Positions 10,307 through 55,570 of a DNA stretch of 64,000 bases are shown here, one piece after another. The stretch is from a candidate division NPL-UPA2 bacterium Unc8 (GTDB lineage Bacteria; NPL-UPA2). The stretch's first letter is position 1. The number at the start of each line of letters is the position of its first letter. A program made the position numbers and the translations under genes. Under the pieces are notes generated by a model. That model had not been told where the DNA came from. It saw only the letters and a program-made list of their open reading frames with translations, and did no database searches. The DNA is taken from the NCBI GenBank assembly GCA_003574845.1, contig NDHY01000002.1, positions 16,317 through 80,316 on the forward strand, read 5' to 3'.

Positions 10307-10365
10307 TCTCTACTCTCTACTTATTTTGCATTTTGCATTTTTGATTTTCTTTGTGCCTCTGTGCC
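10307..10365. repeat. Modular dispersed repeat, copy 1: TCTCTACTCTCTAC + (TTTTGCA)n heptamer array + CTTTGTGCCTCTGTGCC, abutting the leuS start codon
   Basis: Direct reading. Same flanks and architecture as the copies at 46719-46783 (reverse orientation) and 55440-55522. Confidence 0.8.
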
Positions 10366-14033: not shown

Positions 14034-14061
14034 AATTTTCCCTCTATTTATTTCTCTTGAT

Positions 14062-19475: not shown

Positions 19476-20108
19476 TCACTCTGACATCTTCTCCTTCATC
19501 TTGTTAATAACATTAAGTAGCTTCCTGAGTTTATCCACCCCAGTATCTTGCAAGGTGATTACGGCATCTACATGGCCCGCGTGTCCGCATAGAGCAATTG
19601 TATAGCAAATAGTGCCATCTCTAACAATCTTCAACGCCACATCAGCATAGGGACAGTCTATTCCCACAAAGACAGAGACATCGTACTTATTGTGCCCGAT
19701 AACTAAATCGCCATGATAGGGATTAATTTCGGTGGCAGATCTCATCTTTGGATACTCGGGACGAATGTCGGTGATGGGAAGTATCTCCGCTCCTATTGCT
19801 TCTGCCAGTTCTCTTAACACCTCGGCTTTTTCTGGTGCTCCTTCTTTCCAGGGCCAGAGAATAATATACGCTGAGGTGAAAATAACGGGATTTTTAGCAT
19901 TTAGCACTTTTTCAGCAATTTTCTCTAAAGCCTCATCCTCAGAAACATCCTTTTCTTCCACCGTAGCTCTGCCTTTTCCGGGATGCGTCATCTTGGACAC
20001 CGCTTCTGGACCAAGAAGCCACCGATACCTGACCTTATCTATTTCTGCAATCACTCTGGCACCTCTTTTCCATTTACATAGGTTAAGCTTTCTCGATCCG
20101 AACGCCAC
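19476..20108 (-). CDS. Hypothetical protein in the FDH/Nuo-like cluster (start uncertain; overlaps fdhA 3' end)
   Basis: 210-aa ORF with no family recognised by eye. Sits between fdhA and the Fe-S subunit gene. Confidence 0.3.
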   Translation of the reverse strand: MAFGSRKLNLCKWKRGARVIAEIDKVRYRWLLGPEAVSKMTHPGKGRATVEEKDVSEDEALEKIAEKVLNAKNPVIFTSAYIILWPWKEGAPEKAEVLRELAEAIGAEILPITDIRPEYPKMRSATEINPYHGDLVIGHNKYDVSVFVGIDCPYADVALKIVRDGTICYTIALCGHAGHVDAVITLQDTGVDKLRKLLNVINKMKEKMSE

Positions 20109-22911: not shown

Positions 22912-24754
22912 GAATCTTAACCTCCCTTCCTGGAATAATTTCCACCGCACCGAAGCGCTCCGGGCATACGCTCAGACATACCCCGCACCTGGTGCACTTG
23001 TCCTGGTCAATTACATGAACCTCCTTCTTGCCGCCTTTGATTGCTTCGACGGGGCACTTGCGGAGGCAGATCATACAAGCCTTACATTTATCCGACACGA
23101 TAATATAGGAAATAAGCCCCTTGCACACCCTCGCTGGACACTTCTTTTCGAGGATATGGGACTCATATTCCTCGCGAAAATAACGAATGGTACTGAGGAC
23201 CGGGTTCGGTGCGCTCTGTCCCAGACCACAGATCGAGCCTATTTTAACGCTCTCACCCAGTTCAATGAGCAGGTCGATGTCCTCGATCCTGCCGTTCCCT
23301 TCCGTTATAGCGTTAAGGATCTCCAGCATTTGCACGCTTCCCAAGCGGCACAAAGAGCACTGTCCGCATGATTCCTTCTGGGTAAAGTCCAGGAAATAGC
23401 GGGCGAGATCAACCATGCAGGTATCCTCATCCACCACCACCATACCCCCGGAGCCCATCATCGAGCCAGCGGCGGTAAGCGAATCGAAATCAATGGGGGT
23501 ACCGAGCAGGCCTTCAGGCAGAACGCCCCCCGAAGGCCCCCCGGTCTGCACCGCCTTAAAAGTCCTGCCGCCGGGGACCCCTCCCCCGATGTCAAAGATA
23601 ATCTCACGAAGGGTGATTCCCATAGGCACCTCTATAAGCCCGCAGTTTGTTATCTTACCAGTCAGTGAAAAGATGGCCGTTCCTTTGCTCTTCTCAGTGC
23701 CCTGGCTGGCAAACCACTCCGCCCCTTTATTGATAATCCAGCGAATGTTGGCGAAGGTCTTAACGTTATTAAGAAGCGTAGGCCTACCCCACAATCCCAC
23801 CTCGGTGGTGCGGGGACGAGGGAGGGGCTTGGGCATTCCCCTCGCCCCCTCAAGGGAGAGAGTCAAAGCAGTGGACTCACCACAAACAAAAGCCCCTGCA
23901 CCCTGGAAAATCTCAATATCAAAACCGAATCCATTGCCTAAAACATTTTCCCCCAGAAAACCCCGCTCCCGAGCCTCGGCGATGGCAATCCCGAGACGTT
24001 TTACCGCCAGGGGATATTCCGCCCGGACGTAGACATAGCCTTTTGTCGCTCCCACGGCGTAGCCGGCAATGATCATCCCCTCTACGACTGAGTGAGGGTC
24101 GCCTTCCAGGACCGATCGGTCCTGGAAGGCCCCGGGGTCGCCTTCATCGGCATTGCAGACTACATACTTCTCGTCCCCCGGCACGCGGCGACAGGCCTCC
24201 CACTTCCGCCCGGCAGGAAAGCCGCCTCCTCCGAGTCCACGCAGCCCCGAGCGTTTTACCGCCTCGATAACCTGCTCCGGGGTCATCTCAGATAGAACCT
24301 TGCGTAGTGCTTGATAACCGCCGACGGCAAGATAGTCATCAATCTCCTCAGGGTCAATATAGCCGCAATTCTTGAGCACGGTGCGCTGCTGCTTGTTATA
24401 GAAGGTAATGTCGCGGTGATGAGGTATTGCTCTGTCAGTAACCGGATCGCGGTAGAACAGTCGCTCGATCGGCTGTCCCTGCGGCAGAAGCGACCGAGCA
24501 ATCTCCGGTGCATCGTCCACCTTGACCTCTGAGTAGAGAAGGCCCTCGGGCTCGATAATGACAACAGGATCTATTTGGCTGAAGCCACGGCAGCCGGTGT
24601 GCTTCACTTGAACGGTACCTGCCAAATCTAACCGTGCTATCTCCTCCCTCAGCGCGGCTGAAATTTGTTTGGCTCCTGCTGATATGCAGCATGTCCCCTG
24701 ACCGAGCAGGACAGTCCTAACCGGCATCTTGTCCCTCCTTTTTGGTGGAAGCAA
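22904..24754 (-). CDS. HydB/HndC/HylB-type NuoF-like subunit: N-terminal thioredoxin-like [2Fe-2S], FMN/NAD(P)H core, C-terminal 2x[4Fe-4S] ferredoxin
   Basis: 616 aa. N-terminal CxxC pair, GLGGGGFPAGRKWE, CGQCSLCRLG, then CKACMICLRKCP and CTRCGVCLSVCP. Confidence 0.85.
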   Translation of the reverse strand: MLPPKRRDKMPVRTVLLGQGTCCISAGAKQISAALREEIARLDLAGTVQVKHTGCRGFSQIDPVVIIEPEGLLYSEVKVDDAPEIARSLLPQGQPIERLFYRDPVTDRAIPHHRDITFYNKQQRTVLKNCGYIDPEEIDDYLAVGGYQALRKVLSEMTPEQVIEAVKRSGLRGLGGGGFPAGRKWEACRRVPGDEKYVVCNADEGDPGAFQDRSVLEGDPHSVVEGMIIAGYAVGATKGYVYVRAEYPLAVKRLGIAIAEARERGFLGENVLGNGFGFDIEIFQGAGAFVCGESTALTLSLEGARGMPKPLPRPRTTEVGLWGRPTLLNNVKTFANIRWIINKGAEWFASQGTEKSKGTAIFSLTGKITNCGLIEVPMGITLREIIFDIGGGVPGGRTFKAVQTGGPSGGVLPEGLLGTPIDFDSLTAAGSMMGSGGMVVVDEDTCMVDLARYFLDFTQKESCGQCSLCRLGSVQMLEILNAITEGNGRIEDIDLLIELGESVKIGSICGLGQSAPNPVLSTIRYFREEYESHILEKKCPARVCKGLISYIIVSDKCKACMICLRKCPVEAIKGGKKEVHVIDQDKCTRCGVCLSVCPERFGAVEIIPGREVKIHG

Positions 24755-26874: not shown

Positions 26875-26896
26875 AGTGCTAACAGCCTACCTTTGT

Positions 26897-26932
26897 GTCT
26901 TTGTCTTTGTCTTTGTCTTTGTCTTTGTCTTT
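26897..26932. repeat. (GTCTTT)x6 hexanucleotide microsatellite in the dodecin 3' UTR
   Basis: Direct reading: gtctttgtctttgtctttgtctttgtctttgtcttt. Confidence 0.9.
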
Positions 26933-26941
26933 GACCTTAGA

Positions 26942-33719: not shown

Positions 33720-33784
33720 ACTGCCTTCACACTTTTATACCTTTACACCTTGCTGCTGACTGCTGACCGCTGACCGCTTACTTG

Positions 33785-36186: not shown

Positions 36187-37476
36187 TTAATATTGCAACT
36201 GACTGTTGAAATATTGTTTTGCTTCGCCAACGAGGTAAAGGGACCCTGTAATACAAACTGGAGCCTGAGAAGAAGATTTAGTTAAAGCGTAAGAGATGGC
36301 ATCTCTTGTATTTTCTCTAATAGTGACATTTGAAATGTGTTTTTTTGCCTCATTTGCCAGCTCATGTGGCTTTATCGCTCGTTTTGTCTGTGGCTGAGTT
36401 ACCACAACCTCAGTCGCCAGAGGAGCTAACTTTGCTATTATTCCCGGGGCGTCCTTATCATTAAGAATGCCAATAACCATGATAAAATTGCTCAAGCCAA
36501 GGTCAGCGAGCGTCTTTCTTAAAGCATTAGCAGCAGAGGGGTTATGAGCGCCATCCAGCACAATAAGTGGCTTTTTCCTGATTATCTCAAATCTTCCTTC
36601 CCATTTTGCTCTCTTCAATCCTTCCCTTATACTTGCCGGAGAGATGGGAATACCATAGTTCCTGAGAGCCTCTACTGCGCCAATAGCCGTTGTTGCGTTG
36701 ACAACCTGATGCATTCCTATCAAAGTAGTTTGCAGCCGAGAATATTTTCGGTATGTTCCTTTCACTGTGAAAGTTTCACCTCCAAGATTATACTTAAGTC
36801 GGGTGTATTTCAAATTCTCGCCAACGGCAAGTAAAGTCGCCCCTTTTTTCCGACATATCTCCTTTAGTATTGACAATGCTTTCTGCCGGGAGGCAGTAAC
36901 AAGAATGCTGTCTTTTCTGATTATCCCTATTTGCTCCCGGGCAATTTTAGCAACAGTTTTTCCCAGCTCGTTTGTGTGGTCAAGCTCAACATTGGTAACT
37001 ACCGAGATGATAGACCTCAGGACAACTGTAGCATCAAATTTACCCTCAATACCAACTTCGCATACAAGAAAGTCTACCTTCTGCCGGGCAAAAAAAAGAA
37101 AGGCAATAATGGTAACAGTTTCAAAAAAAGTCAGCCGTTCTGCTTTTGAGAGCAGATGGAGTGCACCTCTAACCTCCGCTACTAATTTAGCAAGCTGTCG
37201 TCTGGAAATAAGAACGCCATTAATGGCAATTCTTTCCCTTAATTTAGTAAGATGAGGAGAGGTGTAGGTTCCAACTTTGTACCCGGCACTACGAAGAATT
37301 GAGGAAATAAAAGATGCTGTGGAGCCTTTTCCATTAGTTCCACTGACGTGAATTGACCTTAACTTGAGGTGTGGATTTCCAAATAGCCCGAGGGCGGTTC
37401 TAATGCTTGTAAGCCGAAACTTTTGATTTCTCCCTCCAAGGCTATAAAGATAGACAATTGCCTCTTCATACTTCAT
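36187..37476 (-). CDS. folC: Folylpolyglutamate synthase / dihydrofolate synthase
   Basis: 429 aa. HVSGTNGKGST P-loop of the Mur-ligase family, with an FolC-like C-terminus. Confidence 0.85.
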   Translation of the reverse strand: MKYEEAIVYLYSLGGRNQKFRLTSIRTALGLFGNPHLKLRSIHVSGTNGKGSTASFISSILRSAGYKVGTYTSPHLTKLRERIAINGVLISRRQLAKLVAEVRGALHLLSKAERLTFFETVTIIAFLFFARQKVDFLVCEVGIEGKFDATVVLRSIISVVTNVELDHTNELGKTVAKIAREQIGIIRKDSILVTASRQKALSILKEICRKKGATLLAVGENLKYTRLKYNLGGETFTVKGTYRKYSRLQTTLIGMHQVVNATTAIGAVEALRNYGIPISPASIREGLKRAKWEGRFEIIRKKPLIVLDGAHNPSAANALRKTLADLGLSNFIMVIGILNDKDAPGIIAKLAPLATEVVVTQPQTKRAIKPHELANEAKKHISNVTIRENTRDAISYALTKSSSQAPVCITGSLYLVGEAKQYFNSQLQY

Positions 37477-37486
37477 GCCAGACTAC

Positions 37487-38296
37487 TCAAAACTTATCCA
37501 GCAGTTCAGAAAGAACTTTCTTTAGCTCTCCGCGAGAGACAATCATATCAATTAACCCTCGCTTGAAGAGAAATTCTGCCCTTTGAAATCCTTGCGGGAG
37601 CTCTCTATGTATTGTTTCCTTGATAACGCGTGGACCGGCGAAGCCAATCAGTGCTCGTGGTTCAGCAATGATAATATCGCCAAGGGAAGCAAAACTGGCA
37701 GCAACCCCTCCCATCGTTGGGTCCGTGAGAATGGAAATAAAGAGAAGCTTCTCTTTATTGAGTTTGGCAATAACTGAGCTGGTTTTTGCCATTTGCATAA
37801 GAGAAAGCATTCCTTCCTGCATGCGAGCGCCACCACCAGAGCCAGATATAGTTAAAAGCGGAAGCCTCTTTTCAATCGCTCTTTCAGCTGCCCGCGTTAT
37901 CTTTTCCCCAACAACTGAGCCCATAGAACCCATCATAAACCGAGAATCGGTAACTGCGATGACAATGGGGTGATTATCCAGATATCCCTCCCCGGTGATA
38001 ACAGCTTCAGTGAGTCCTGTTTTCTTTTGCTCCTCAACTATTTTATCCCGGTACAGTTCTAATCCCTGAAAATTAAGTGGATCGTGGGAAGTCATCTGCG
38101 AATCACATTCCTCAAAAGTGCCGTCTTTAAGTAGTAGACTTATCCTTTCTCTTGCTCCGAGTCGGAAGTGATAATTGCATTTCGGGCAAACCTTTAGCAT
38201 TTTCTCTAATTTTTTGCCAAGTATAAACTCGCCGCAATCATTGCACCTCATCCCGAGACCATTAGTTCTTTCAACTTGCTTGCGTGGCCAGATCAT
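37487..38296 (-). CDS. accD: Acetyl-CoA carboxylase carboxyltransferase beta subunit
   Basis: 269 aa. N-terminal zinc ribbon (CNDCGEF...CPKCNYHFR) and the carboxyltransferase domain. Confidence 0.9.
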   Translation of the reverse strand: MIWPRKQVERTNGLGMRCNDCGEFILGKKLEKMLKVCPKCNYHFRLGARERISLLLKDGTFEECDSQMTSHDPLNFQGLELYRDKIVEEQKKTGLTEAVITGEGYLDNHPIVIAVTDSRFMMGSMGSVVGEKITRAAERAIEKRLPLLTISGSGGGARMQEGMLSLMQMAKTSSVIAKLNKEKLLFISILTDPTMGGVAASFASLGDIIIAEPRALIGFAGPRVIKETIHRELPQGFQRAEFLFKRGLIDMIVSRGELKKVLSELLDKF

Positions 38297-38306
38297 TTTT
38301 TTTGCC

Positions 38307-38927
38307 TCAACTGCCTTCAGCGCGCTTTTTTATTGCCTCAAGAAGTACAAGTGGAGGAGATAAGTTTAATGCAAGGTCTGCTCCTGGTATTATTCTTACC
38401 ATAGCAGCAACTAGCCCTCCCATCTCTTCAAGACAGGGTGCCTGCTCTGAGACAATAAGCAGGGTTTTCTCCCCTACGGAGAGGACGCTATAGAAACCGG
38501 TTTCCTCCGACTTTTCCGGACAACGAATGAATAATTTTGGCTTCTCCGGTCTGAATATAGTAGTATATGAAAAGGAAAATGGAATCATCATAAATCTCAT
38601 TGCAAGGGTAAAATCAACCGTTACTGTGTCTTCTTTTGTTTGAACAATTTTTGATGACCTCATCATTGGCACAAACTCAGACCATCTCTCAAAATCGGTG
38701 AGCACCTCCCAGACTTTCTCGAGGGGAGCATCAATTAGTATTGAGCCTATTCTGTGAACTCTTTCCGGCTCTGCTTTCTCAAGGATCATCATCTGGCCCC
38801 CTCTTTCAAGGCTTTCTCTAAGGAGAATGTTAAACTCTTCTGGAAGAGGTTCTGATGAAAAGGCAGAACCCCCCTGGAGGAGAACAATGCTCAATAACAC
38901 CAATCCTATAACAACCTTCTTCACCAT
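38307..38927 (-). CDS. Secreted SRPBCC (START/Bet v1-like) domain protein
   Basis: Real gene likely starts at MVKKVVIGLVLLSIVLL (signal peptide). The upper 214 codons of track ORF 38307..39569 are antisense to the 39115..39579 gene and probably not coding. Confidence 0.5.
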   Translation of the reverse strand: MVKKVVIGLVLLSIVLLQGGSAFSSEPLPEEFNILLRESLERGGQMMILEKAEPERVHRIGSILIDAPLEKVWEVLTDFERWSEFVPMMRSSKIVQTKEDTVTVDFTLAMRFMMIPFSFSYTTIFRPEKPKLFIRCPEKSEETGFYSVLSVGEKTLLIVSEQAPCLEEMGGLVAAMVRIIPGADLALNLSPPLVLLEAIKKRAEGS

Positions 38928-39114
38928 TATCAATTTCCTCCTTTCACCAATCACCAATTTTAGAATATCACATTGCGCAGAATTTGCGCAACAAATTTCT
39001 TCATGTCTGTCAAAATTAACAAGGCACAGAGGCACATATAATAAAAACTTTGTTGACTTGATTCGAGAGTTTTCAGTAGAATAAGAGTATGTGCAAAGAT
39101 CAGGAGTAATCAGC

Positions 39115-39579
39115 ATGCAAATCGGGGTTATTGGTTCTAACAGATGTTCAGAAGAGATAGTTAAGATTGCTACCGATGTTGGCAGGGAGATTGCCAGGAG
39201 CGGAGCAACTCTGGTCTGTGGTGGTATGGAAGGAGTTATGGAGGCAGCCGCCAGAGGAGCGAAAGAGGAAGGCGGAAGGACAATCGGAATTCTCCCGGGA
39301 TTTAACAAGAAACAGGCAAATAAATACATAGACTTTTTTATCGTTACGGGAATGGGAGAAGGAAGAAATGTCATTGTCGTCAAATCTTCAGATGCGATAA
39401 TTGCCATTGCAGGCGGCTCCGGAACGCTCTCTGAGATTGCTTTTGCCCTAAATGCTTCCATTCCTGTAGTTGGACTAAACACCTGGGATTTAAGAATTTC
39501 GGGCAGGAAACCGGAAGGGATAATCAGGGCAAGAAGTGCAAAAGATGCTGTGAAAAAGGCACTCACCATGATTAAATAG
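39115..39579 (+). CDS. TIGR00725/LOG-like (SLOG) Rossmann-fold protein
   Basis: MQIGVIGS...LVCGGMEGVMEAAARGA...GGRTIGILPG are characteristic of the TIGR00725 / YvdD-LOG family. Confidence 0.7.
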   Translation: MQIGVIGSNRCSEEIVKIATDVGREIARSGATLVCGGMEGVMEAAARGAKEEGGRTIGILPGFNKKQANKYIDFFIVTGMGEGRNVIVVKSSDAIIAIAGGSGTLSEIAFALNASIPVVGLNTWDLRISGRKPEGIIRARSAKDAVKKALTMIK

Positions 39580-39657
39580 GAAATACTTTGCTTTTCTTCA
39601 ACAGCTTATGATAAAATTATTATCGTAAGGAAAGGATTCAAGAGGTAAGGAGGGACA

Positions 39658-40818
39658 ATGGGAGGAGCTGAACTGATTGGCGGAGAAGAAAAAGATGCTA
39701 TAGCTGAAGTTATTGACCGCGGGGCGGTTCTTTTTCGATATGGATTTGATAAGCAGCGCCACAGCATCTACAAAGTAAGTGAGTTTGAAAAGAAGTTTGC
39801 CGAATACTCAGGGGTAAGATATGCTCTTGGAGCCTCTTCAGGAACAGCGGCATTAAGGATAGCATTGGCTGCTCTGGGCATCAGGCGCGGGGATGAAGTG
39901 ATTATGCCGGCATTTACTTTTGTTGCCACTGCGGAGGCGATAATTGAAAGCGGAGCAACACCGGTTATTGCCGAGATTGATAGTTCGCTAAACCTGAACC
40001 CTGATGATTTTGAGAATAAGATTACAGAGAAAACAAAGGCAGTCGTTCCTGTGCATATGCTCGGCGTCGCAGCAAAAATGGATCGGGTGATGGAGATAGC
40101 AAAAAAACACCGACTCCGGGTCTTAGAAGACGCAGCTCAAGCTTGTGGTTCAAGTTTTAGGGGAAAAAAGGTAGGAACAATCGGAGACATTGGCATTTAT
40201 AGTTTTGACTATGTCAAGACAATAACTACCGGAGAAGGTGGAATGCTTGTTACCAACGATGAGGATTTATATTTGAAAGCGAGTTCCTTTCACGACCACG
40301 GGCACGAGCACCAAACGGACGTTCCGCGAGGAAAGGACTTAAGGAGAGAACATGGGTTTAACTTTCGCATGTCAGAATTGCAAGGAGCAATGGGAATCGT
40401 TCAGTTAGGACGGCTTGATTATGTCATCTCCGAGCAAATAAAAAACAAAGAATCAATAAAAGAAGCTATTAAAGAAATAAGAGCTATCAGGTTCCGGGAA
40501 CTCCCTGATGCGGCGGGGGACGGAGGAGATACGCTTGTCTTCTTTCTTCCCAATAAAGGAATGGCAAGTAATTTTGAAGAAGGATTGACACAAGAGGGAA
40601 TAGGAACAAAAATCCTTCCATCCGCACTTAACTGGCACTATGTTGCCTACTGGGACCATATCCGATTAAAGATAAAAAACCCCAACGCTACCTGGCCATC
40701 TACCGACAGCATCCTCCGCCAGGCAATTGCCATTCCTATCTCAGTAAAGATGGCTGAGGCGGAGATAGAAAAAATAATATCCGCGGTCAAAAGAGTGGCA
40801 GGAGATGTCCTTTTATAG
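39658..40818 (+). CDS. DegT/DnrJ/EryC1/StrS family PLP-dependent aminotransferase
   Basis: 386 aa. ALGASSGTAALRIAL...DEVIMPAFTFVAT is the family-typical N-terminus. Confidence 0.8.
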   Translation: MGGAELIGGEEKDAIAEVIDRGAVLFRYGFDKQRHSIYKVSEFEKKFAEYSGVRYALGASSGTAALRIALAALGIRRGDEVIMPAFTFVATAEAIIESGATPVIAEIDSSLNLNPDDFENKITEKTKAVVPVHMLGVAAKMDRVMEIAKKHRLRVLEDAAQACGSSFRGKKVGTIGDIGIYSFDYVKTITTGEGGMLVTNDEDLYLKASSFHDHGHEHQTDVPRGKDLRREHGFNFRMSELQGAMGIVQLGRLDYVISEQIKNKESIKEAIKEIRAIRFRELPDAAGDGGDTLVFFLPNKGMASNFEEGLTQEGIGTKILPSALNWHYVAYWDHIRLKIKNPNATWPSTDSILRQAIAIPISVKMAEAEIEKIISAVKRVAGDVLL

Positions 40819-40836
40819 GCCCTATACTCCGGAGGT

Positions 40837-41115
40837 TTATTCCCAGCCGCGAATGGAGAAGGAATTAAACGTTCCCTGATGGGGGAGCCATTCTACCTCC
40901 ACGTTATGAACAACTGCCCCCGGAGGACCCTGATGACACCAGGAGATAAGCCTTTTTACCGACTCTTCTTTTCCTTCAAGAAGAGCTTCAACCTTTCCAT
41001 CCAATCTATTCCTCACCCAGCCACCAATTCCTTCTTTCTCCGCCTCTCTTGACATCATAAAACGAAAGAATACTCCTTGCACTCTTCCTGAGACGAGAAC
41101 CCTTGCTCCTACCAT
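40837..41115 (-). CDS. acyP: Acylphosphatase
   Basis: 92 aa with VSGRVQGVFFR and GWVRNRLDGKVE signatures. Confidence 0.85.
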   Translation of the reverse strand: MVGARVLVSGRVQGVFFRFMMSREAEKEGIGGWVRNRLDGKVEALLEGKEESVKRLISWCHQGPPGAVVHNVEVEWLPHQGTFNSFSIRGWE

Positions 41116-41195
41116 TTACTTTAGTATCTCCAGTGTTAGCGTTTGGATATCAACGATTAACCTTTATTGCACAGCTTTTTTATCTATTCCACAAC

Positions 41196-41204
41196 TTATC
41201 CACA
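41196..41204 (+). promoter_or_regulatory. Perfect DnaA-box TTATCCACA in the tyrS upstream region
   Basis: Direct reading. Confidence 0.35.
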
Positions 41205-41300
41205 GGAAGAAAGGGCTTGTTTAACTGCGGTAATTTTAGCCATGAAATACAGGATAACGATGGGTAGCCGTCATTTTTATCAGAGAAGCTCATCCTGCAT

Positions 41301-41319
41301 TTATCCCGATTTATCCACA
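41301..41319 (+). promoter_or_regulatory. Tandem DnaA-box-like pair TTATCCCGA-T-TTATCCACA
   Basis: Direct reading: second perfect TTATCCACA preceded by a 7/9 match. Confidence 0.35.
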
Positions 41320-41480
41320 GGGTCTTCAAATATCTCCTAATACCACTAATATCTGAGGTAGGTGACTACATATTTATTTTGTCAAATAATTCATCATCAG
41401 GCAACAATTTCTTTAATATGCATAAATTGACAAGTTATGAGTAATTATGTCATTATTGTATTGAAAAGTAAGGAGAGAAT

Positions 41481-42686
41481 ATGAAGCCTGAAAAACAATT
41501 AGAGATTTTCAGAAGAGGAGCGGTTGAAGTTATCCCGGAGGAAGAGCTCCTCGCCAAAATTGAGAACGCTCGCAGAAAGAAACGAGGGCTACGGATAAAG
41601 TTTGGCGCTGACCCATCAGCGCCTGATATTCATCTTGGGCATACCGTCTGCCTGCACAAGCTGAAAGAACTGCAGGACCTCAAGCATGAGATAATTTTTG
41701 TGATTGGGGACTTTACCGCCACAATTGGCGACCCCAGCGGACAGACAAAGACAAGGAAGCCGCTCAGCAGAGAGGAAATAATGAAGAACGCAGAGACCTA
41801 CCAGAACCAGGCCTTTAAGATACTCAGTCCCTCTCAGACAAAGGTTGTCTATAATAGCCAGTGGTGTGATAGATTAGCGCTTGCTGAGGTGTGTGAGTTG
41901 GCTTCTAAATATACCGTTGCCAGAATGATAGAAAGGAACGACTTCCAAAAACGTTATCAAAGTGGGCAGGAGATAGGCATCCATGAGTTTTTGTATCCTC
42001 TCATTCAAGCGTATGACTCCATTGCCCTGAAGTCAGATGTGGAGGTTGGCGGGACAGACCAGAAATTTAATTTTCTTGTTGCCAGGGAGCTCCAGCATCG
42101 CTATGGGCAGGAGCCGCAGGTAGTACTTACTCTGCCCATTCTTCCAGGAACAGACGGAGTGCGGAAGATGAGCAAAAGCATGGGAAACTACATTGGTATA
42201 ACCGAGCCGCCGCAGGAAATATTTGGCAAAATTATGTCCATCTCAGATGAACTGATGTTCACATATTATGAGCTGCTCACATCCATATCTTCTGCCGGAT
42301 TGAAGAGGATGAGGAAAGGAAGTTCTCACCCTCGTGATTTGAAAAAGAGTCTGGCAAAAGAGATTGTGGCGCTTTATTATGGAAATAAGCTGTCATTACG
42401 AGCCGAGGAGGAATTTGAAAATGTTTTTAAGAAAGGAAGAGCGCCGGAAGAGATTCCATCTTTAATGCTATCAAAAAGTGAACTGAAAGATGGGAAAATG
42501 GAACTTGTAAAAATTTTACTTCTATCGTCTATGGCGAAGAGCAAAAGCGAGGCAAAGCGACTCATTCAAGCAGGAGCAGTCAAGATAAACAATGAAAAGT
42601 GCAGCAATTCAGAGATAGAAATAAGGAAAGGAATGGTTATCAGAACAGGCAAGCGAAAATTTGCGGTGATTGATATCTCGGATTGA
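41481..42686 (+). CDS. tyrS: Tyrosyl-tRNA synthetase (with C-terminal S4 domain)
   Basis: 401 aa with HLGH and KMSKS motifs and a TyrS-specific core. Confidence 0.95.
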
Positions 42687-42704
42687 ACAAAAATCAAAAC
42701 AAAA

Positions 42705-43424
42705 ATGAGTAAGTTAGATAGTTTTAAAATAGGAGGAGAGCCGGCGCTGGTAGCAGTTATCTGGGGTGAGAACATAGGGGAGTTAGGAGCAAAAGCAAAA
42801 GAAGAAGGAGCCGACATTTTAGAGCTCAGGCTTGATAAATTCAGGCAGCTAAACCAGTCATTACTTTTGGAGTCCATCGGAGAAATAAAAAAACTCGGCT
42901 TACCTCTCATTGCCACCGTAAGACGCATAGATGAGGGAGGAGAAAGAGAGATTAAAGAAGAAGAAAGGCTTCGTCTTTTGCAGTCTATTTTCCCATATGT
43001 AGATGCCATAGATATAGAGCTAAGGTCATCATCTATTATTAATGAGATTGTCTCTCGTGGGCAGGAGTTAGAAAAAACAATAATTGTATCCTACCATAAT
43101 CTAAAGGAAACCACGACGGAGAAAGAGCTTCATAAGATAGCTGAGAAGGCAAAAGCGACTGGAGCTGATATTGTCAAGATTGCCGCCTTTGCCAGAGAGG
43201 CAGACGATATTGCCCGCCTGATGAATTTTACCTACCACTCTTCCATTAAACCAATTGCCTCTATTTCAATGGGAGTAATTGGCACTATTTCCCGGATTAT
43301 TGCCCCTTTATTTGGCTCCTGTTTTGGCTATGCTTACCTGCATCAGAGCGCTGCTTCCGGCCAGCTCAGCGTTTCTAAGTTAAGAAGCGAGTGGAGAAAG
43401 TATAAGATTTCTTATAGGCCTTAA
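42705..43424 (+). CDS. aroD: 3-dehydroquinate dehydratase, type I
   Basis: 239 aa. ELRLD and TVRR...EGG motifs typical of type I DHQase. Confidence 0.7.
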   Translation: MSKLDSFKIGGEPALVAVIWGENIGELGAKAKEEGADILELRLDKFRQLNQSLLLESIGEIKKLGLPLIATVRRIDEGGEREIKEEERLRLLQSIFPYVDAIDIELRSSSIINEIVSRGQELEKTIIVSYHNLKETTTEKELHKIAEKAKATGADIVKIAAFAREADDIARLMNFTYHSSIKPIASISMGVIGTISRIIAPLFGSCFGYAYLHQSAASGQLSVSKLRSEWRKYKISYRP

Positions 43425-43463
43425 CGAAGAAAACAGGGCAGACCATATTCGCGGCCGTTCGCA

Positions 43464-44522
43464 TTATTGAAAGGTATGGATTGCGGTGGACTTGAAAGCG
43501 AGGTAGATGGAGGCTCCCTCCCTTAAGTCTAACTCAGAGAGAGCATTCCCGGTTATCAATACCTTGAATATAACCCAGCCCACTTTTACCTGAACTTCAT
43601 AATAGAATCCCTCTCTGATGATTTTAGAAATCACGCCTCTGAAGTTGTTACGCATACTTGAGGAGAGTCTCTCCCTGCTTATCACTATATCCTCTGGTCT
43701 AATAGCCAGATACCCTTGAGCATCCTTCATCTCCCTTCCCAGTTCCACCTCCAAATTCTGAAGCCATGCCTTGCTACCCTTAAATTCCACCAAAAAGATG
43801 TTCTTCATACCCACGAACTCCGCCACCTCTCTATCTCTGGGGAAAGCAAATACCTCACTCCGCTCCCCGACCTGATGGACCTCACCATTTATGAGCACAA
43901 CTATCCTATCCGCCAGGCGCTGGCCCTGGGCCATATCATGCGTCGTCATTACTATCGTGGTGCCATACCGATGGATAATATTTGTTATGAGTTCTTCAAT
44001 TCTTGATGTTGAAATCGGATCAAGGTTTGCCGTAGGTTCATCCAGTAGTAATACCTCTGGCTCAACCGCTATCGCTCTGGCTATTGCCACCCTTTGTGCT
44101 TCGCCACCAGACAGTGTTCCGGCATTTCTATTCTTATGGTCTGAGAGATTAACCATCTCCAGAATATTATCAACTTTTTGGCGAATACTACTTTTCCCCA
44201 CCCCTCGCCATTTCAGCCCATAGGCAATATTATTATAGACAGTAGTGTTAAATACCACTGGTTTCTGACTTACAAACGCCATTCGTCGCCGTGTCTCTAA
44301 TCCAACCTTCCCAAGCTGGGTAACATCGGTGTCATCAAAATATATCCTCCCCGATGTAGGCATATCAAGCAGGTCAATCAGGCGTAAAAGCGTAGTTTTA
44401 CCAGCACCAGTGGGACCAATCAGGGCAAGAACCTCACCACTTTCCACCTTGATATTGATATTTTTCAGGGATTCTTTCTCGCCAAATCTCTTAGATAGGT
44501 TTCTCACTTCTACTATGACCAT
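43464..44522 (-). CDS. tupC: ABC transporter ATP-binding protein with C-terminal TOBE domain (tungstate/molybdate type)
   Basis: 352 aa. Walker A GPTGAGKTT, LSGGEAQRVAIARA, and a TOBE-like C-terminus. Confidence 0.8.
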   Translation of the reverse strand: MVIVEVRNLSKRFGEKESLKNINIKVESGEVLALIGPTGAGKTTLLRLIDLLDMPTSGRIYFDDTDVTQLGKVGLETRRRMAFVSQKPVVFNTTVYNNIAYGLKWRGVGKSSIRQKVDNILEMVNLSDHKNRNAGTLSGGEAQRVAIARAIAVEPEVLLLDEPTANLDPISTSRIEELITNIIHRYGTTIVMTTHDMAQGQRLADRIVVLINGEVHQVGERSEVFAFPRDREVAEFVGMKNIFLVEFKGSKAWLQNLEVELGREMKDAQGYLAIRPEDIVISRERLSSSMRNNFRGVISKIIREGFYYEVQVKVGWVIFKVLITGNALSELDLREGASIYLAFKSTAIHTFQ

Positions 44523-44524
44523 TA

Positions 44525-45211
44525 TTACCTCTGCTGTATTCTATTCAGGACTACGTTGACTATGAAAGATAGCGACAGGAGAATAATCCCCAGAGCTATT
44601 GCCATCTCTAACTCACCCTTTTGTGATTCCAGCGCTATCGCCGAAGTAAGCACTCTGGTGAACCCCCTTATATTCCCACCGACCATAAGAGCGATTCCCA
44701 ACTCTGAGACGGCTCGTCCGAAACCCATTATGATAGCGGCGACAATGGCGAACCTTGCCTCTTTTGAGATAATTATAACAGCCTGAAAGTCGCTGGCGCC
44801 AAGCGATAGCGCCGTATCCTTAATCGCTTTATCTACACCACTGAGAGCCGAAATGGTTAGACCGAGCAATATCGGTGTGATTAACATCATGTGCCCGATG
44901 ACCATAGTAGTTGGCGTGAAGAGTAGATTTAAGCCACCGATCGGACCGGCCCGAGAAAAGAGGACAAAGACAAGTAAGCCAATACAGACCGAGGGGATAC
45001 TGAATAATGTCTGGATGACATTTATCAAAACTCTCTTGCCCGGGAAACGGTAAAAGTGGATGAGACCGCCAAGCGGTAGGCAAATAAGAGAGGCGAGGAT
45101 AACGGAGGTCGCTGAAATCCCCAGCGACCTCCCGGCTATCTCCATAACCTCTGGGTCAAGCGAGACGATAAGCTCGATAGCTTTGATAAAGGCGTGCCAT
45201 ACTTCAATCAA
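44525..45211 (-). CDS. tupB: ABC transporter permease (tungstate/molybdate type)
   Basis: 228-aa polytopic membrane protein with an EAA-like loop, located between the binding-protein and ATPase genes. Confidence 0.8.
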   Translation of the reverse strand: MIEVWHAFIKAIELIVSLDPEVMEIAGRSLGISATSVILASLICLPLGGLIHFYRFPGKRVLINVIQTLFSIPSVCIGLLVFVLFSRAGPIGGLNLLFTPTTMVIGHMMLITPILLGLTISALSGVDKAIKDTALSLGASDFQAVIIISKEARFAIVAAIIMGFGRAVSELGIALMVGGNIRGFTRVLTSAIALESQKGELEMAIALGIILLSLSFIVNVVLNRIQQR

Positions 45212-45223
45212 TGGATCTTACTC

Positions 45224-46153
45224 CTATTCTTTAGGTTCTGCCCCGGCACAAGGGATGAATAGCGGCATCCCAAACTCCTCAACGCCGTAATTGCCGATGA
45301 GTTCCTGTATTTCAGGTGAGGTGAGGAATTCTATGAGGTTATTGGCCATCTCAATATTGGTTTTGGGATGCCTTTCTGGATTTATGGCAATGGCGGAGTA
45401 AACATTGAGCAATATAGCTCCTTCATCCACGAGCGGCACCAAATCCACTTCACCCCCGAAAGCGAGAAAAGTCCCCATATCAACCAGAGTATAGGCCTGC
45501 TTCTCACTGGCCATAAGGAGGGTTGGACCCATTCCTCTTCCCGCTTCTATATACCACTTCCCGGCTCTTCGAACTGCTTCATAATCATAGCCCGCTCCTC
45601 TCCAGATTGCCTTCTCCTTGCCATGGGTCCCAGAAGCATCTCCTCTGGAAACAAAGCGCCCGAGGCCGGTTTCCATCAATCTCTTGAAAGCTGCCTCTGG
45701 GCTTAGACCTTTAATGCCTGCCGGGTCATCTGGTGGTCCCACAATGAGGAAATAGTTGTAAGCAAAGACAACTCGCTGGACACCATAACCCTCGGCGACG
45801 AATTTCTTCTCATAGGCTTTGGCATGAGTAGCGATAACATCTACATCTCCTCTCCTTCCCCACGCCAAGGCTATCCCGGTTCCGGCATAAATGATATCTA
45901 ACTCTACATTGAATTCCTTCTCAAACATCGGTTCCAGGTGCCCCCACAGACCGGTGTCATAAAGGCTGGTGGTAGTAGCTACTCTCATTCTTTCCACGGG
46001 CCGCAGTGCCTCAACCGTTGGTGGTGCGGGAGGCAGTACCTCAACCGGTGGTGGTACAGGAGCACGTCCCACCCTACCTATAAACAGGCCAAGGAGTACT
46101 ATTACTACCAGTCCTCCTATCATCTTACCTATTCTTTTACCTCTTTTACCCAT
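45224..46153 (-). CDS. tupA: Periplasmic tungstate-binding protein, TupA family (start taken at the internal Met MGKRGKRIG...)
   Basis: The TTTSLYDTGLW motif (TTTS..D[T/S]GL) is the TupA/WtpA-type oxyanion-binding signature. A signal/transmembrane segment precedes it. Confidence 0.75.
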   Translation of the reverse strand: MGKRGKRIGKMIGGLVVIVLLGLFIGRVGRAPVPPPVEVLPPAPPTVEALRPVERMRVATTTSLYDTGLWGHLEPMFEKEFNVELDIIYAGTGIALAWGRRGDVDVIATHAKAYEKKFVAEGYGVQRVVFAYNYFLIVGPPDDPAGIKGLSPEAAFKRLMETGLGRFVSRGDASGTHGKEKAIWRGAGYDYEAVRRAGKWYIEAGRGMGPTLLMASEKQAYTLVDMGTFLAFGGEVDLVPLVDEGAILLNVYSAIAINPERHPKTNIEMANNLIEFLTSPEIQELIGNYGVEEFGMPLFIPCAGAEPKE

Positions 46154-46301
46154 TATTTTTCTCCTTATTTTTTCATTTACCCTCATTTTTCCCGCTGAAC
46201 AACAGTCCCTTAATGACTTTGAAATTTTAACATTTTCCCCAACATTTTCCCCTCCTTGTCTTTTTTTATTTACCCTCATTTTTACGGTCTGCTTTCACAA
46301 C

Positions 46302-46339
46302 ATAAAAAAACCAGCTCCCATGAATTTAGAGAGCTGGTT
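46302..46339 (-). terminator. Intrinsic terminator/attenuator: 9-bp stem AACCAGCTC / GAGCTGGTT with a 13-nt loop, followed by UUUUUUUAUG, about 150 nt upstream of the tupA start
   Basis: Direct reading of the minus strand: GGCGAUAACCAGCUCUCUAAAUUCAUGGGAGCUGGUUUUUUUAUG. Confidence 0.7.
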
Positions 46340-46608
46340 ATCGCCGAGACGCCAAAGCCTGCTGAGACGCTGAATTATTTCCTGCGTTTCTGCGGCCAAA
46401 GGGTTCTGCGTTTGCTCCTTTCCAAACACGGGAGGTATCCCGATTTCTCAAAATGCCCTATCGCTCCGATGCCATATCTCATTATTAAGACTTAGGCGCC
46501 CGGAGTCGGAGCCATATTTAATTGTTAAAGCATATCATGCCACAATATTAGGGGATGTCAAGAAAAATCTTAGGAAGAGAAAACATGGTCAGACCTCAAC
46601 AAAATGAG

Positions 46609-47024
46609 TGGGTAGTAGGTAGTAGGTAGTGAGCAGGTAACAAGTCATTAGCTAAAGTAAAGTATGAGCAAAGTAATGTTAACATATTGAATTTCAATCT
46701 CCTACATTAGTAAATAAAGGCACAAAGAATTAAGTTGTAAGTTGTAAGTTGTAAGTCGTAAGTTGTAAGTAGAGAGTAGAGAGAAAAGAGAGATGAAATT
46801 GGAAATTAGAAATTGGAAATTGGGTGTAGTGTAGCCCTTTATGGGCGTAGAGAGTAGAGAGAAGAGAGTAGAGAGAGATGAAAATGGAAATTGGAAATTG
46901 GAAATTAGTAAGTGGTGGGTAGTAGGTAGTAAGTAGTTTAGGGTTTAGGGTTTAGGGTTTAGGGTTTAGGATTTGTAATTGATAACTGGTGTTCTGGTGC
47001 TCTGGTGATCTGGTGATCTGGTAA
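46609..47024. repeat. Repeat island of consecutive different short tandem arrays: (GGTAGTA)n, GGCACAAAG, (TTGTAAG)x5, GTAGAGAGTAGAGAG, (GAAATTG)x3-4 (twice), (TTTAGGG)x4.7, (CTGGTGNT)x4
   Basis: Direct reading. It includes two tandem copies of the modular element at 46719-46783 and 46841-46935 and two mini-ORFs at 46793-46834 and 46878-46922. Confidence 0.9.
46719..46783. repeat. Modular dispersed repeat, copy 2 (reverse orientation): GGCACAAAG-AATTAAG-(TTGTAAG)n-TAGAGAGTAGAGAG
   Basis: Its reverse complement, CTCTCTACTCTCTAC-(TTACAAC)n-TTAATTCTTTGTGCC, has the same architecture as 55440-55496. Confidence 0.85.
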
Positions 47025-47125
47025 GTTATTTTTTGTGTTCCCTACTAAGGATACATAATATATCTTATGTCAAGTAAGCAAAAAAACTAAAGAGGATAAC
47101 ACCAAAATACAAAACAAACCTCCCA

Positions 47126-49344: not shown

Positions 49345-49409
49345 GCTGTAGTCACGCTAATCCGCTGACAATTATATCTGACAGAGAAAGGAAGATAGGT
49401 ATTGCAAAG
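49345..49409 (+). repeat. 65-bp direct repeat, left copy (GCTGTAGTCACGCTAATCCGCTGACAATTATATCTGACAGAGAAAGGAAGATAGGTATTGCAAAG)
   Basis: 64/65 identical to 50438..50502. Confidence 0.9.
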
Positions 49410-49416: not shown

Positions 49417-50336
49417 GGGGTCAGGTCTTGCAATATAACAAAAGATATGCTATATTGGCAACATGACCAGACCATTACGGATAGAATTTAACGGAGCAGT
49501 TTATCATATCACTTCCAGAGGAAATGCTAAGCAGACGATCTTCCTTGATGAGAAAGACTTTGCTGATTTCCTTGGAGTCTTATGTCAGGTGGTAAAAAGA
49601 TATCACCTCATATTACATGCCTTCTGTCTGATGAATAACCATTATCATCTGCTTATTGAAACCCCTGAAGGTAACTTATCAAGAGGGATGAGACAATTAA
49701 ATGGTCTATATACCCAACGATTCAACCAAAGACATCAGAGAGTTGGGCATCTTTTACAGGGCAGGTACAAAGCGATTCTGGTAGATAAAGATAATTATTT
49801 ACTGGAACTTTGTCGCTATGTGGTGTTAAATCCGGTAAGGGCAAAAATAGTAAAAGACCCCAAAGACTGGAAATGGAGTGCTTATCGGGCAACTATAGGC
49901 TATAAAGGAATTCCCTGTTTAACGACAGATTGGATACTTTCTCAATTTGGCAACGAGAAAAAAGCAGCCTCCAGACAATATCAAGAATTTGTCTACTCCG
50001 GGATAAAAGCAGAATCACCCTTAAAAGTGGTAAAGGGGCAATTGTTTCTTGGCCAGGATAATTTTATGGATAAGATGAAATCCTTGATTGCAGGCAAAGA
50101 AAAATTAAAAGAGATACCGAGAGAGCAGCGCTATATAACCAGGCCACCCTTAAAGGAAATTTTTGATTATAAGGACAAGGAGTCAAAAGATCAAGCAATG
50201 TATGAGGCTTGCTTACAGTATGGCTATACCTTAAAAGATATAGCAGAATATATTGATGTGCATTATACTACAGTGAGCAGAGTGATTAAAAAAATTGAGG
50301 GGGAAAATGAAAAGTGATATTGCAAGACCTGACCCC
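49417..50336 (+). mobile_element. Candidate minimal insertion element: Y1/HUH transposase-like gene bounded by 20-bp perfect inverted repeats (49417-49436 GGGGTCAGGTCTTGCAATAT; 50317-50336 ATATTGCAAGACCTGACCCC)
   Basis: Inverted repeats read directly. A sigma70-like promoter (TTGCAA-17-TATATT, 49428-49456) lies in the left end and predicts a leaderless transcript starting at the ATG at 49463. Confidence 0.45.
49463..50317 (+). CDS. IS200-like (Y1 HUH) transposase-family protein with C-terminal DnaA-C-like HTH (COG1943-type, 'transposase and inactivated derivatives')
   Basis: N-terminus MTRPLRIEFNGAVYHITSRGN...HAFCLMNNHYHLLIE has the HUH-type HxH and YH motifs. The C-terminus YTLKDIAEYIDVHYTTVSRVIKKIE is an HTH. 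Confidence 0.7.
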   Translation: MTRPLRIEFNGAVYHITSRGNAKQTIFLDEKDFADFLGVLCQVVKRYHLILHAFCLMNNHYHLLIETPEGNLSRGMRQLNGLYTQRFNQRHQRVGHLLQGRYKAILVDKDNYLLELCRYVVLNPVRAKIVKDPKDWKWSAYRATIGYKGIPCLTTDWILSQFGNEKKAASRQYQEFVYSGIKAESPLKVVKGQLFLGQDNFMDKMKSLIAGKEKLKEIPREQRYITRPPLKEIFDYKDKESKDQAMYEACLQYGYTLKDIAEYIDVHYTTVSRVIKKIEGENEK

Positions 50337-50437: not shown

Positions 50438-50502
50438 GCTGTAGTTACGCTAATCCGCTGACAATTATATCTGACAGAGAAAGGAAGATAGGTATTGCAA
50501 AG
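50438..50502 (+). repeat. 65-bp direct repeat, right copy; immediately upstream of the methyltransferase RBS/ATG
   Basis: 64/65 identical to 49345..49409. Confidence 0.9.
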
Positions 50503-52469: not shown

Positions 52470-53759
52470 TTATTTTTTAAATGGATATTTAAGGAATATA
52501 ATAAGCCCGATAAAAGTTATGATTCCTGCTATTGGTCCAACTATTATGATTCCAAGTGGCTCTTCTATGGTTTTTCCAAAATGATGCAGAAGTTGAGTAA
52601 GAGCAAACATAGAGATACCAATCGCTATCTTGGTTATTAATCCATTGGCGCCAAAATAGATTGCTTCTCTTCTAAATCCTGTTAAAGTTTCATCGTAGTC
52701 AATCACATCAGCAATTATCGCATTTTGTAAAACCAACAGCCCGGAAACCGGTATTCCGAGCATAGCAACAATAAACAACCCATAATAAAAAGGTGAAAAC
52801 GGCAGTTTCCCAATAGTTGCCAGTAAAAACAAGAAAAAGATAAAAAGACCAAAAACAGTTATATAGACTACTCGCTTACCAAACCTCTTTGCAGAATAAT
52901 TAATCAAAGGAAAGGACAGAGCAGCTACTGCCATCATTATTCCTAATGCATATCCTGCCCACCCTGCAGTCGCCCCCATTAATACCGTTACCATAAAAGG
53001 GACAACCCCAGTCACCATGCCAAACCCTAAGAAGAAAATGCCAGTTGCAGAGACATAATAAAGGAACGGCTTGTTCTTGAAACACTGTGTCAGTGCTTTG
53101 AACGGGGACAAGGTTACTTCCTTTGCGGAAGACCAGGAAGTTTCCCTGATAAATATTACCGGAAAACAAAAACTAACAAGAGTAATGCCCCCCATAACAA
53201 TAGCCATCACTCTGAAGCCAAACTGGTCTATCAGATAACCCGAGCCCAAAAAAGCAATAAAAAGCCCTAAAATACCAAAACTGGCAAGATAGGTTGATAA
53301 GTTTATTCGCTGGCGGTGAGTAGAAGTAATTTCAGGGAGAAGCGCTAAATACGGGGCAACTGTAACAGTAAAGAAAAACCAGAAAAAACCCAATACTACT
53401 GCCAAATATAAAGCATTACCCATTACTTTATCGGCAACAGGTGGATAAAAAAGAAGGGTCCATGCTACAACTAAAAAGGGAGCCCCCAGTGCAATAAATG
53501 GAATTCTTCTCCCAAAACGGCTTCTATGTTTATCACTAAAATATCCGATCAACGGATCGGCAATGGCATCTACGATCCTGCCAAAAAGCATGGCATATCC
53601 TACAAATATGATAGGAGCATAAATTATTCCTTTTCCTTCTGGTGGCGCATAGAAAAAAACTATCCACATTGGAATAAGCTGACTAACGAGCAATGAACCT
53701 AGATTGCCACTACTGTAAGCAAGGCTCTTAAACAAACCCAGATTTTTCTCTTTATCCAT
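52470..53759 (-). CDS. MFS transporter, GPH (glycoside-pentoside-hexuronide:cation symporter) / MFS_2 family
   Basis: 429 aa, 12 predicted transmembrane segments. N-terminus GRIVDAIADPLIGYFSDKHRSRFGRRIPF is the GPH-family signature loop. Confidence 0.75.
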   Translation of the reverse strand: MDKEKNLGLFKSLAYSSGNLGSLLVSQLIPMWIVFFYAPPEGKGIIYAPIIFVGYAMLFGRIVDAIADPLIGYFSDKHRSRFGRRIPFIALGAPFLVVAWTLLFYPPVADKVMGNALYLAVVLGFFWFFFTVTVAPYLALLPEITSTHRQRINLSTYLASFGILGLFIAFLGSGYLIDQFGFRVMAIVMGGITLVSFCFPVIFIRETSWSSAKEVTLSPFKALTQCFKNKPFLYYVSATGIFFLGFGMVTGVVPFMVTVLMGATAGWAGYALGIMMAVAALSFPLINYSAKRFGKRVVYITVFGLFIFFLFLLATIGKLPFSPFYYGLFIVAMLGIPVSGLLVLQNAIIADVIDYDETLTGFRREAIYFGANGLITKIAIGISMFALTQLLHHFGKTIEEPLGIIIVGPIAGIITFIGLIIFLKYPFKK

Positions 53760-53824
53760 TCCCGATTCTCTTCCCGATTCTTCTTTTTTGCTTTTTTCCT
53801 TTCTTGATAGAATTTATTCCACCA

Positions 53825-55423: not shown

Positions 55424-55439
55424 CTTATTAATCACCTCC

Positions 55440-55570
55440 TCTCTACTCTCTACTTACCACTTACCACTTACGACTTACGACTTAATTCTTTGTGCCTTTG
55501 TGCCTTTGTGCCTTTGTGCCTCTCTCTACTCTCTACTTACCACTTACTACTTACTACCTACTATCTACTC
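55440..55570. repeat. Modular dispersed repeat, copies 3 and 4 in tandem: [TCTCTACTCTCTAC-(TTACCAC/TTACGAC)n-TTAATTCTTTGTGCC(TTTGTGCC)3][CTCTCTACTCTCTAC-(TTACTAC)n], abutting the GGDEF gene RBS
   Basis: Direct reading. Reverse complement of motif blocks in 46719-46935. Same flanks as 10307-10365. Confidence 0.85.

Follow-up and report, generated by a model that had tools for sequence, protein, structure and literature searches.

STRR-like composite heptamer repeats fill intergenic spacers of an NPL-UPA2 bacterium and probably turn over by slippage and recombination

The STRR1, STRR2 and STRR3 repeats of cyanobacteria are built from the heptanucleotide units CCCCAGT, TTGGTCA and CAACAGT. More generally, the long simple sequence repeats of many bacteria are predominantly of the heptanucleotide type (Mrazek et al., 2007, in the account of that work given in PMC4679880). 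MacGregor (2015) described heptamer arrays just upstream of start codons, Microcystis arrays in which TAACTGA is mixed with further heptamers, Cyanothece strains that differ by 7-nt-step indels, nearly identical multi-heptamer assemblages at two Elizabethkingia loci, and contigs ending in the repeats (PMC4679880), and Rehm (2015) reported intergenic G-quadruplex heptamers of the form GGGNATC between aligned ORFs in Xanthomonas and Nostoc (PMC4692102). An earlier note drew attention to dispersed heptamer arrays in DNA of the NPL-UPA2 bacterium ‘Unc8’, a metagenome-assembled genome (MAG) of roughly 1 Mb from The Cedars springs (PMC6305446). Its comparison with the cyanobacterial STRR heptamers is apt, since tandem 7-nt units occur here at many intergenic sites, but its view that the element had not been described is not: mixed intergenic heptamer assemblages, strain indels in 7-nt steps and contig breaks at the repeats have all been published (PMC4679880, PMC4692102). 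What we report is a known class of intergenic heptamer repeats in a new lineage, and no new principle is involved.

The DNA of this organism sampled here comprises a 64-kb window, by which we mean the whole stretch under analysis, and ∼40 kb of flanks. The window contains 14 exact period-7 arrays, where Markov-1 simulations of the same window predict 0.28 and never gave more than 1, and two period-8 arrays where 0.05 are expected; an excess of this size is found in the window at period 7 only. Non-coding DNA makes up 6.5% of the window and contains 13 of the 14 period-7 arrays. The arrays are strand-asymmetric and are present in eight spacers. Within the window we thus see both the hallmark of long simple sequence repeats, i.e., units of 5–11 nt in tandem more often than the Markov-1 expectation, and those of STRRs, i.e., a heptanucleotide tandem unit at dispersed intergenic sites.

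The most complete composite module lies at 55439–55521(+) and reads (CTCTCTA)2 (CTTACCA)2 (CTTACGA)2 CTTAATT (CTTTGTGC)4 C. Read on the minus strand, its end overlaps and supplies the GGAGGTG ribosome-binding site of a GGDEF gene with its ATG at 55423. It is followed in tandem at 55522–55570(+) by (CTCTCTA)2 CTTACCA (CTTACTA)2 CCTACTA TCTACTC, a copy that has the left flank only. A paralogue of the first module is found in inverted orientation at 46719–46783(−) as (CTCTCTA)2 CTTACAA CTTACGA (CTTACAA)3 CTTAATT CTTTGTGC C, and is part of a 430-nt mosaic at 46600–47030, to which no single strand is assigned and which contains at least nine different 7- and 8-nt arrays with the units AGTAGGT, TTGTAAG, GTAGAGA (twice), GAAATTG (twice), TAGTAAG, GTTTAGG and CTGGTGAT. 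Within the same mosaic, (TTTAGGG)5 at 46936–46970 corresponds to the plant-type telomere unit and, having four GGG tracts, could form a G-quadruplex. In the spacer between a yqfB-like gene and leuS, at 10306–10365(+), the order is (CTCTCTA)2 CTT (ATTTTGC)2.7 ATTTTTGATTTT CTTTGTGC CTCTGTGC C. This copy is related to the module through its end arrays, which are those of the other modules: it has the left flank and CTTTGTGCCTCTGTGCC but lacks TTAATT, and its core is (ATTTTGC)n.

Motif counts in the window support the earlier note's description of a dispersed family with related copies in several spacers, and every sequence quoted there was found within 1 nt of its position. The left flank CTCTCTACTCTCTAC occurs exactly five times, at 10306(+), 55439(+), 55522(+), 46769(−) and 46847(−), and eight times with up to two mismatches (0.13 expected), while (CTTTGTGC)n-type or CTTTGTGCCTTTGTGCC-type matches number six (0.11 expected). 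The junction TTAATTCTTTGTGCC is found exactly only at 55482(+) and 46719(−). That at least three loci share the full architecture was too generous a count, however: the complete order (CTCTCTA)2-(CTTACNA)n-CTTAATT-(CTTTGTGC)n, with both flanks, is present at two loci, 55439–55521 and 46719–46783(−), and the others are partial. The picture of fixed flanks around a hypervariable core also needs to be redrawn. According to Tandem Repeats Finder the flanks are themselves tandem arrays, (CTCTCTA)2 and (CTTTGTGC)n, as short as the core and of the same kind. The core, in turn, is mostly one unit, CTTACNA, because CTTACCA, CTTACGA, CTTACAA and CTTACTA differ at a single position, where all four bases are found across different arrays. 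Flanks and core together form a single mosaic of 7- and 8-nt repeats.

Further arrays occupy other spacers. A partial copy, (CTTTGTGC/CTTTGCGC)2.6 with the same CCTTTATTT end as the inverted copy, takes up the ribBA–ribH spacer at 4873–4896(−) as far as the GGGGAGG ribosome-binding site. A degenerate mosaic at 1796–1880(+), in the hom–ribD spacer upstream of ribD, consists of GTAGAGA, (AAAATCA)3.4, TGCAAAATGC, TATGGGCGTAG and (GTGTTAG)2. This mosaic, together with a hairpin, CCCCGAT-TTGC-ATCGGGG, lies between GGCTGAAGGCTG (1793–1804) and CTGAAGGCTGAAG (1924–1936), and the region upstream of ribD has the appearance of a (GGCTGAA)n array interrupted by an insertion. The metK–ahcY spacer is filled entirely by (CCTTTACA)3.5 and (CTGCTGA/CCGCTGA)4.3 at 33724–33782(+); the dodecin–folE spacer carries CCTACCTTTGTG followed by (TGTCTT)6.3 at 26896–26933(+), and the GGDEF–MFS spacer carries (TTCCCGATTCTC)2 and (CTTTTTTG)3 at 53759–53806(+), abutting the MFS start codon. 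The sole period-7 array in coding DNA, (CGGCTGA)4.7 at 21137–21169(+), is in frame in the gene for the alpha subunit of a selenocysteine-containing formate dehydrogenase. Its translation is an insertion (...GAVSRQPSAVSREEAG...) within the molybdopterin domain, identical in another assembly of this organism (L115). The gene itself appears as two ORFs, 21865–22950 and 20083–21852, split by a TGA that is likely to encode selenocysteine; fdhA adjoins nuoEF-like genes, and an acylphosphatase gene is also present in the window. These features, like the type IV pilus genes beside leuS in two relatives (see below), agree with the description of the Unc8 MAG in PMC6305446.

How do these arrays compare with the described systems? 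They resemble STRRs in having 7-nt tandem units at many intergenic sites with several unit types often side by side, and loci in Rivularia show CTCTCTA-CTTACTA-CTTGCTA runs like those of the window. However, none of the window arrays has the STRR1–3 units, the host is not cyanobacterial (among named organisms, KSB1, Calditrichota and Zixibacteria come closest in LeuS, at ∼60% identity), and inverted pairs or hairpins are absent from the arrays of this organism. With the TAACTGA system of Beggiatoaceae, Microcystis, Cyanothece and Elizabethkingia they have in common mixed heptamers, 7-nt indels, repeated assemblages and contigs that end in the repeats, but there are no TAACTGA arrays in the window, and lineage and habitat are different. 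Arrays stand just before start codons at some genes here, as in that system, but neither the position nor the orientation holds for all of them. Because both units and host differ, the arrays belong to neither the STRR1–3 nor the TAACTGA sequence families, although they behave alike. The long simple sequence repeats of Mrazek et al., so far as they are represented in PMC4679880, are similar in their tandem-repeat excess, the dominance of 7 nt, the non-coding location and the slippage proposed for them; relative to that account, the arrays here are short (2–6 copies), concatenate many units in a recurring order, and have a composite that is duplicated between loci. The GGGNATC repeats likewise form intergenic arrays between co-oriented ORFs, <50 bp from starts or stops, and (TTTAGGG)5 has four GGG tracts, but most units here cannot form G-quadruplexes. 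A CRISPR array, with repeats of 23–50 nt and unique spacers of similar length, was rejected, the units here being 6–8 nt, head to tail and spacerless.

The arrays could be fixed features of the genome or could be changing, and independent assemblies of nearly identical organisms allow the two to be compared. Proteins identical to those of the window are found in the GPS1 and BS5 metagenomes of The Cedars and in the MAGs QLUF, QLUG and QLUH. An exact-protein look-up of the GGDEF protein, with either GTG or ATG start, gave no match, and neighbouring genes were used instead. The flanks are 99.7–99.9% identical between assemblies, except for ∼98% in 37145–46877. Against this background the spacer between the GGDEF gene and truA has two alleles, each supported by four independent assemblies. 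One is 258 nt long (the window, BBPD, QLUH and DRR093101), the other 182 nt (BBPF, QLUF, DRR093103 and DRR093104). They differ by precisely the 83-nt first module, which the 182-nt allele lacks, minus one CTTACTA unit, so that the tandem copy has (CTTACTA)3 in the other populations where the window has (CTTACTA)2. The 83-nt module is bounded by 21-nt direct repeats, CTCTCTACTCTCTACTTACCA. As a consequence, the leader of the GGDEF gene differs by 76 nt between spring populations.

The mosaic upstream of modA has three structural alleles, of 540 nt (the window), 583 nt and 667 nt. The 583-nt allele has (TTGTAAG)3 where the window has five copies, i.e., only three CTTACAA units in the inverted copy as read on its own strand, and its right half is replaced by (GGCACAGAG)2(GGCACAAAG)2-AAAGTGCAAAATGCA-(GTGATTG)n plus additional arrays. 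This replacing block opens with 34 nt that match the (CTTTGTGC)n arrays of the GGDEF and leuS loci; the sampled DNA yielded no donor for the block (in the L097 allele). The 667-nt allele contains an internal duplication and a scaffold gap. In contrast to these two loci, the leuS, ribH, ribD and fdhA arrays are unchanged across assemblies, apart from one SNP in the ribD-upstream mosaic in six other assemblies. The comparison between strains that the earlier note had proposed therefore bears out its expectation of expandable, recombinogenic arrays: near-identical strains have different alleles at two loci, distinguished by whole modules and by single 7-nt units. The copy-number changes, (CTTACTA)2 versus 3, (TTGTAAG)5 versus 3 and gain or loss of a module, are of the kind that characterizes phase-variable loci. 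A separate observation concerns the tract 37145–46877, from modABC to the folC side, which is ∼98% identical rather than 99.7–99.9% as elsewhere; the mosaic stands at its boundary, which suggests a recombination breakpoint.

Differences of this kind could in principle reflect assembly artefacts, chimeric joins or adaptor sequence, since short-read contigs often end in or next to arrays and some scaffolds have N gaps there. Several contigs do end in or beside arrays, three of them ∼24 nt from the point at which the mosaic alleles diverge, and these ends near the divergence point suggest that individual samples contain both alleles. However, different assemblers applied to separate samples from several years (BBPD, BBPF, QLUF/G/H, Logan) yield the same array sequences within unique flanks, and both alleles of the GGDEF spacer are backed by four assemblies each. 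These independent assemblies refute an artefact for practical purposes, and we give it next to no credence.

The explanation we prefer, and consider probably correct, is that these are STRR-like composite simple-sequence repeats that fill spacers, turn over by slippage and recombination, and are not mobile. Judging from the structure of the alleles, the arrays most likely evolve by slippage together with unequal or ectopic recombination. Replication slippage within an array would change the number of units, and a point mutation in one unit followed by local spread through slippage would create the CTTACNA variants. Unequal or ectopic homologous recombination between arrays with common units would do the rest, and could explain both the recurrent order and the recurrent junctions. 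The module would then be a higher-order repeat, with a tandem copy at 55439–55570 and an ectopic inverted copy at 46719–46783. The single-unit steps, the indel between internal direct repeats and the exchange of blocks all point to slippage and recombination, and not to a mobile element.

Mobility was nevertheless part of the original proposal, and a non-autonomous mobile element, MITE-, REP- or BIME-like and mobilized by a RAYT-type Y1 transposase, has some features in its favour. Dispersed copies have common ends, AAATAAAGGC(A/G)CAAAG at the inverted copy and the ribH copy, and a RAYT gene lies 2.4 kb from the large mosaic. As in REPs and BIMEs, the loci are mosaics of short intergenic motifs in recurring order, and many of the units contain GTAG, which is the tetranucleotide conserved in E. 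coli REPs. The RAYT-type gene is at 49463–50317 (NF047646, 86.6 bits against a cutoff of 80) and encodes a C-terminal HTH. It is bracketed by perfect 20-nt inverted repeats, GGGGTCAGGTCTTGCAATAT, at 49417–49436 and 50317–50336, outside which stand 65-nt direct repeats, 98% identical, at 49345–49409 and 50438–50502. The region looks like a cassette of ∼1.1 kb that would have entered the DNA upstream of a methyltransferase gene; the start annotated for that gene is not the same in all assemblies.

Little of this extends to the arrays themselves. Whereas REPs are palindromic, the arrays have no inverted symmetry: no inverted repeats of at least 10 nt were found in the three main loci, and there are neither inverted repeats or hairpins in or around the modules nor target-site duplications. 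The repeats that flank the RAYT gene are different from the arrays and unrelated to them, and no RAYT homologue is present in the 80 heptamer loci listed from other genomes (see below). The indel between populations is bounded by array-internal 21-nt direct repeats, as expected for unequal recombination. We therefore reject, as the main explanation, both a MITE, for want of terminal inverted repeats and a target-site duplication, and a REP/BIME–RAYT system, for want of a palindromic unit and of a RAYT gene flanked by the same repeats, and we consider mobilization of the module very improbable. An equally improbable variant is that the arrays are written or reshuffled by an enzyme, e.g., a HUH/Y1 nuclease like RAYT that would act on GTAG-containing single-stranded heptamers during replication. 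If true, it would account for the recurrence of CTCTCTA, CTTACTA and CCTACTA, which are of the GTAG/CTAC type, in more than ten phyla, for the period of 7 and for the exchange of whole blocks among strains.

The recurrence across phyla was seen when 185,579 species genomes were scanned for exact matches to CTCTCTACTCTCTACTTA, which gave at least 80 loci. None of the 80 matches listed is from the source organism; they come from Omnitrophota, Acidobacteriota, Planctomycetota, Cyanobacteria, Chloroflexota, Bacteroidota, Bacillota and CPR bacteria. Almost all of those listed fall within (CTCTCTA)n arrays, with CTTACTA-type units often coming next, so that among the matches listed (CTCTCTA)n arrays are found in more than ten phyla, in loci that are rich in other period-7 arrays: the listed loci contain 193 arrays of period 7 against 54 of period 4, the next most frequent, and at most 30 for any other period from 5 to 12. 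Of the 62 period-7 arrays that lie >300 nt away from the seed in the listed foreign loci, a biased sample, 19 contain CTAC or GTAG. Several of the Acidobacteriota, Planctomycetota and Bacteroidales loci (L007–L086) carry (TAGAGAG)n and (CTCTCTA)n as inverted pairs, forming hairpins that stand immediately 5′ of starts or are followed by T-runs as in terminators. When a metagenome collection was queried for the full composite pattern, with the left array, 10–40 nt and CTTTGTGCC, it occurred only at the leuS locus of this organism itself, which is one more point against a mobile module, although absence elsewhere is weak evidence given that the same scan missed the known GGDEF copy in BBPD.

A different type of explanation is that the arrays are selected cis-regulatory elements. 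As leader or intercistronic RNA tracts they might offer ribosomes a standby site or act as enhancers; they might be bound by a protein that recognizes RNA or DNA, which has been proposed for the TAACTGA repeats; or they might be contingency loci in which a change in length tunes expression, for example of the GGDEF cyclase. Position gives this explanation its main appeal. Arrays abut the ribosome-binding site or start of leuS, the GGDEF gene, ribH, ahcY and the MFS gene, standing a few nt 5′ of each; at leuS the first in-frame ATG is in contact with the array, and 12 nt separate the array's end from the conserved start at 10293 (MYPFKEIE, an N-terminus also present in the relatives). As read from the window sequences, the mRNA-sense strand is purine-rich in 7/7 start-proximal arrays, and the leaders are unstructured. 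Further points in favour are the 76-nt difference in GGDEF leader between spring populations, the persistence of arrays in the same spacers at 81% LeuS identity, and reporter data from Nostoc which suggest that heptamer repeats affect expression (10.1101/2022.06.06.494920).

Much of the positional evidence is weakened by the architecture of the genome. The window is 93.5% coding, so spacers are mostly short and anything that fills a spacer will abut a start codon. The claim that the elements usually abut start codons stands for leuS and the GGDEF gene, but fails for 46719–46783, which is upstream of the promoter-like site of the Moco-riboswitch operon. Specifically, the large mosaic extends between the stop codon (47126) of a 117-aa Minf_1886-family gene and a promoter-like TTGACA-16-CATGAT at 46561–46534, which is followed by the Moco riboswitch and then the modA operon; being upstream of the promoter-like site, it is not in a leader. 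It also has the opposite strand orientation, and both relatives described below, in which arrays are not positioned a few nt 5′ of starts either, break the purine-sense rule as well. We therefore give that rule little weight. Nor were start codons enriched next to (CTCTCTA)n in the 80 listed foreign loci, being found in 14/78 and 15/61 cases on the two sides against 19% of random positions, a crude control.

The promoter role suggested at first is not supported either, as neither the arrays nor the DNA directly upstream of them yielded a sigma-70-like promoter or a terminator, and the largest mosaic precedes its promoter-like site. A structured RNA was likewise rejected since the leaders fold no better than shuffles: a 166-nt array RNA has −7.7 kcal/mol and an open centroid structure, i.e., is essentially unfolded, as is the array DNA, and the folding z-score of −2.3 for the large mosaic stems from its flanks and a 4-bp hairpin. 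A search of the window with Rfam returned two families only, a class A RNase P RNA at 14058–14411(−) (302 bits), which has no heptamer insert, and the Moco/tungsten riboswitch at 46399–46523(−) (72 bits) upstream of the modA-type ABC transporter operon.

The relatives provide a further comparison. Among organism-named matches, including KSB1, Calditrichota and Zixibacteria, LeuS identity does not exceed 62%, but two relatives with 81% LeuS identity and common gene order have 7- or 8-nt arrays in the same spacers; in both, type IV pilus genes adjoin leuS. No exact unit with at least two copies is common to the window and these relatives, and the idea of a common ‘vocabulary’ was dropped because near matches by eye (TTTAGGG/TTTAGGA, ATTTTGC...ATTTTTG) include no exact unit. 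A third relative, with 67% LeuS identity, has compact spacers and no arrays. One relative (L111) has (TTTAGGA/TTTAGGG)n at 6639–6715, directly 5′ of leuS. In another relative (L112, ENA ERZ3623437; 5740–6090), octamers ACTCCAnT and their complement GGAGTnAT flank a tRNA-Leu upstream of leuS; the arrays of this relative occur as inverted pairs, unlike those of the window, and could form a long stem enclosing the tRNA-Leu, like a processing stem. Arrays in the same spacers with different units indicate that the tendency to have arrays is a lineage trait while the sequences turn over quickly: as far as these genomes can tell, the propensity is conserved among relatives and the sequences are ephemeral. 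That the units are not conserved argues against a specific binding protein.

The arrays might act on expression by way of leaders that are purine-rich and unstructured, or their length might tune the GGDEF gene, but we find it unlikely that the arrays as a class are selected cis-regulatory elements. Under turnover by slippage and recombination, effects on expression would be a by-product of altered spacer or 5′-leader length and of unstructured purine-rich RNA, without a dedicated promoter. At the same time, pure mutational drift does not predict the 7/7 purine-rich sense strands, from which the two relatives deviate, and a 430-nt mosaic kept in a 93.5%-coding genome of possibly ∼1 Mb is not obviously neutral.

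For those who assemble this organism from short reads, the practical consequence is that the arrays coincide with many contig ends and scaffold gaps. More broadly, the question of why bacteria accumulate intergenic heptamer repeats has been open since the 1990s, and the present case adds a non-cyanobacterial and probably very small genome in which arrays still occupy whole spacers at 93.5% coding. The neighbouring serpentinizing, alkaline springs of The Cedars offer a natural series of alleles, and thus a test bed for slippage and recombination against selection on leaders.
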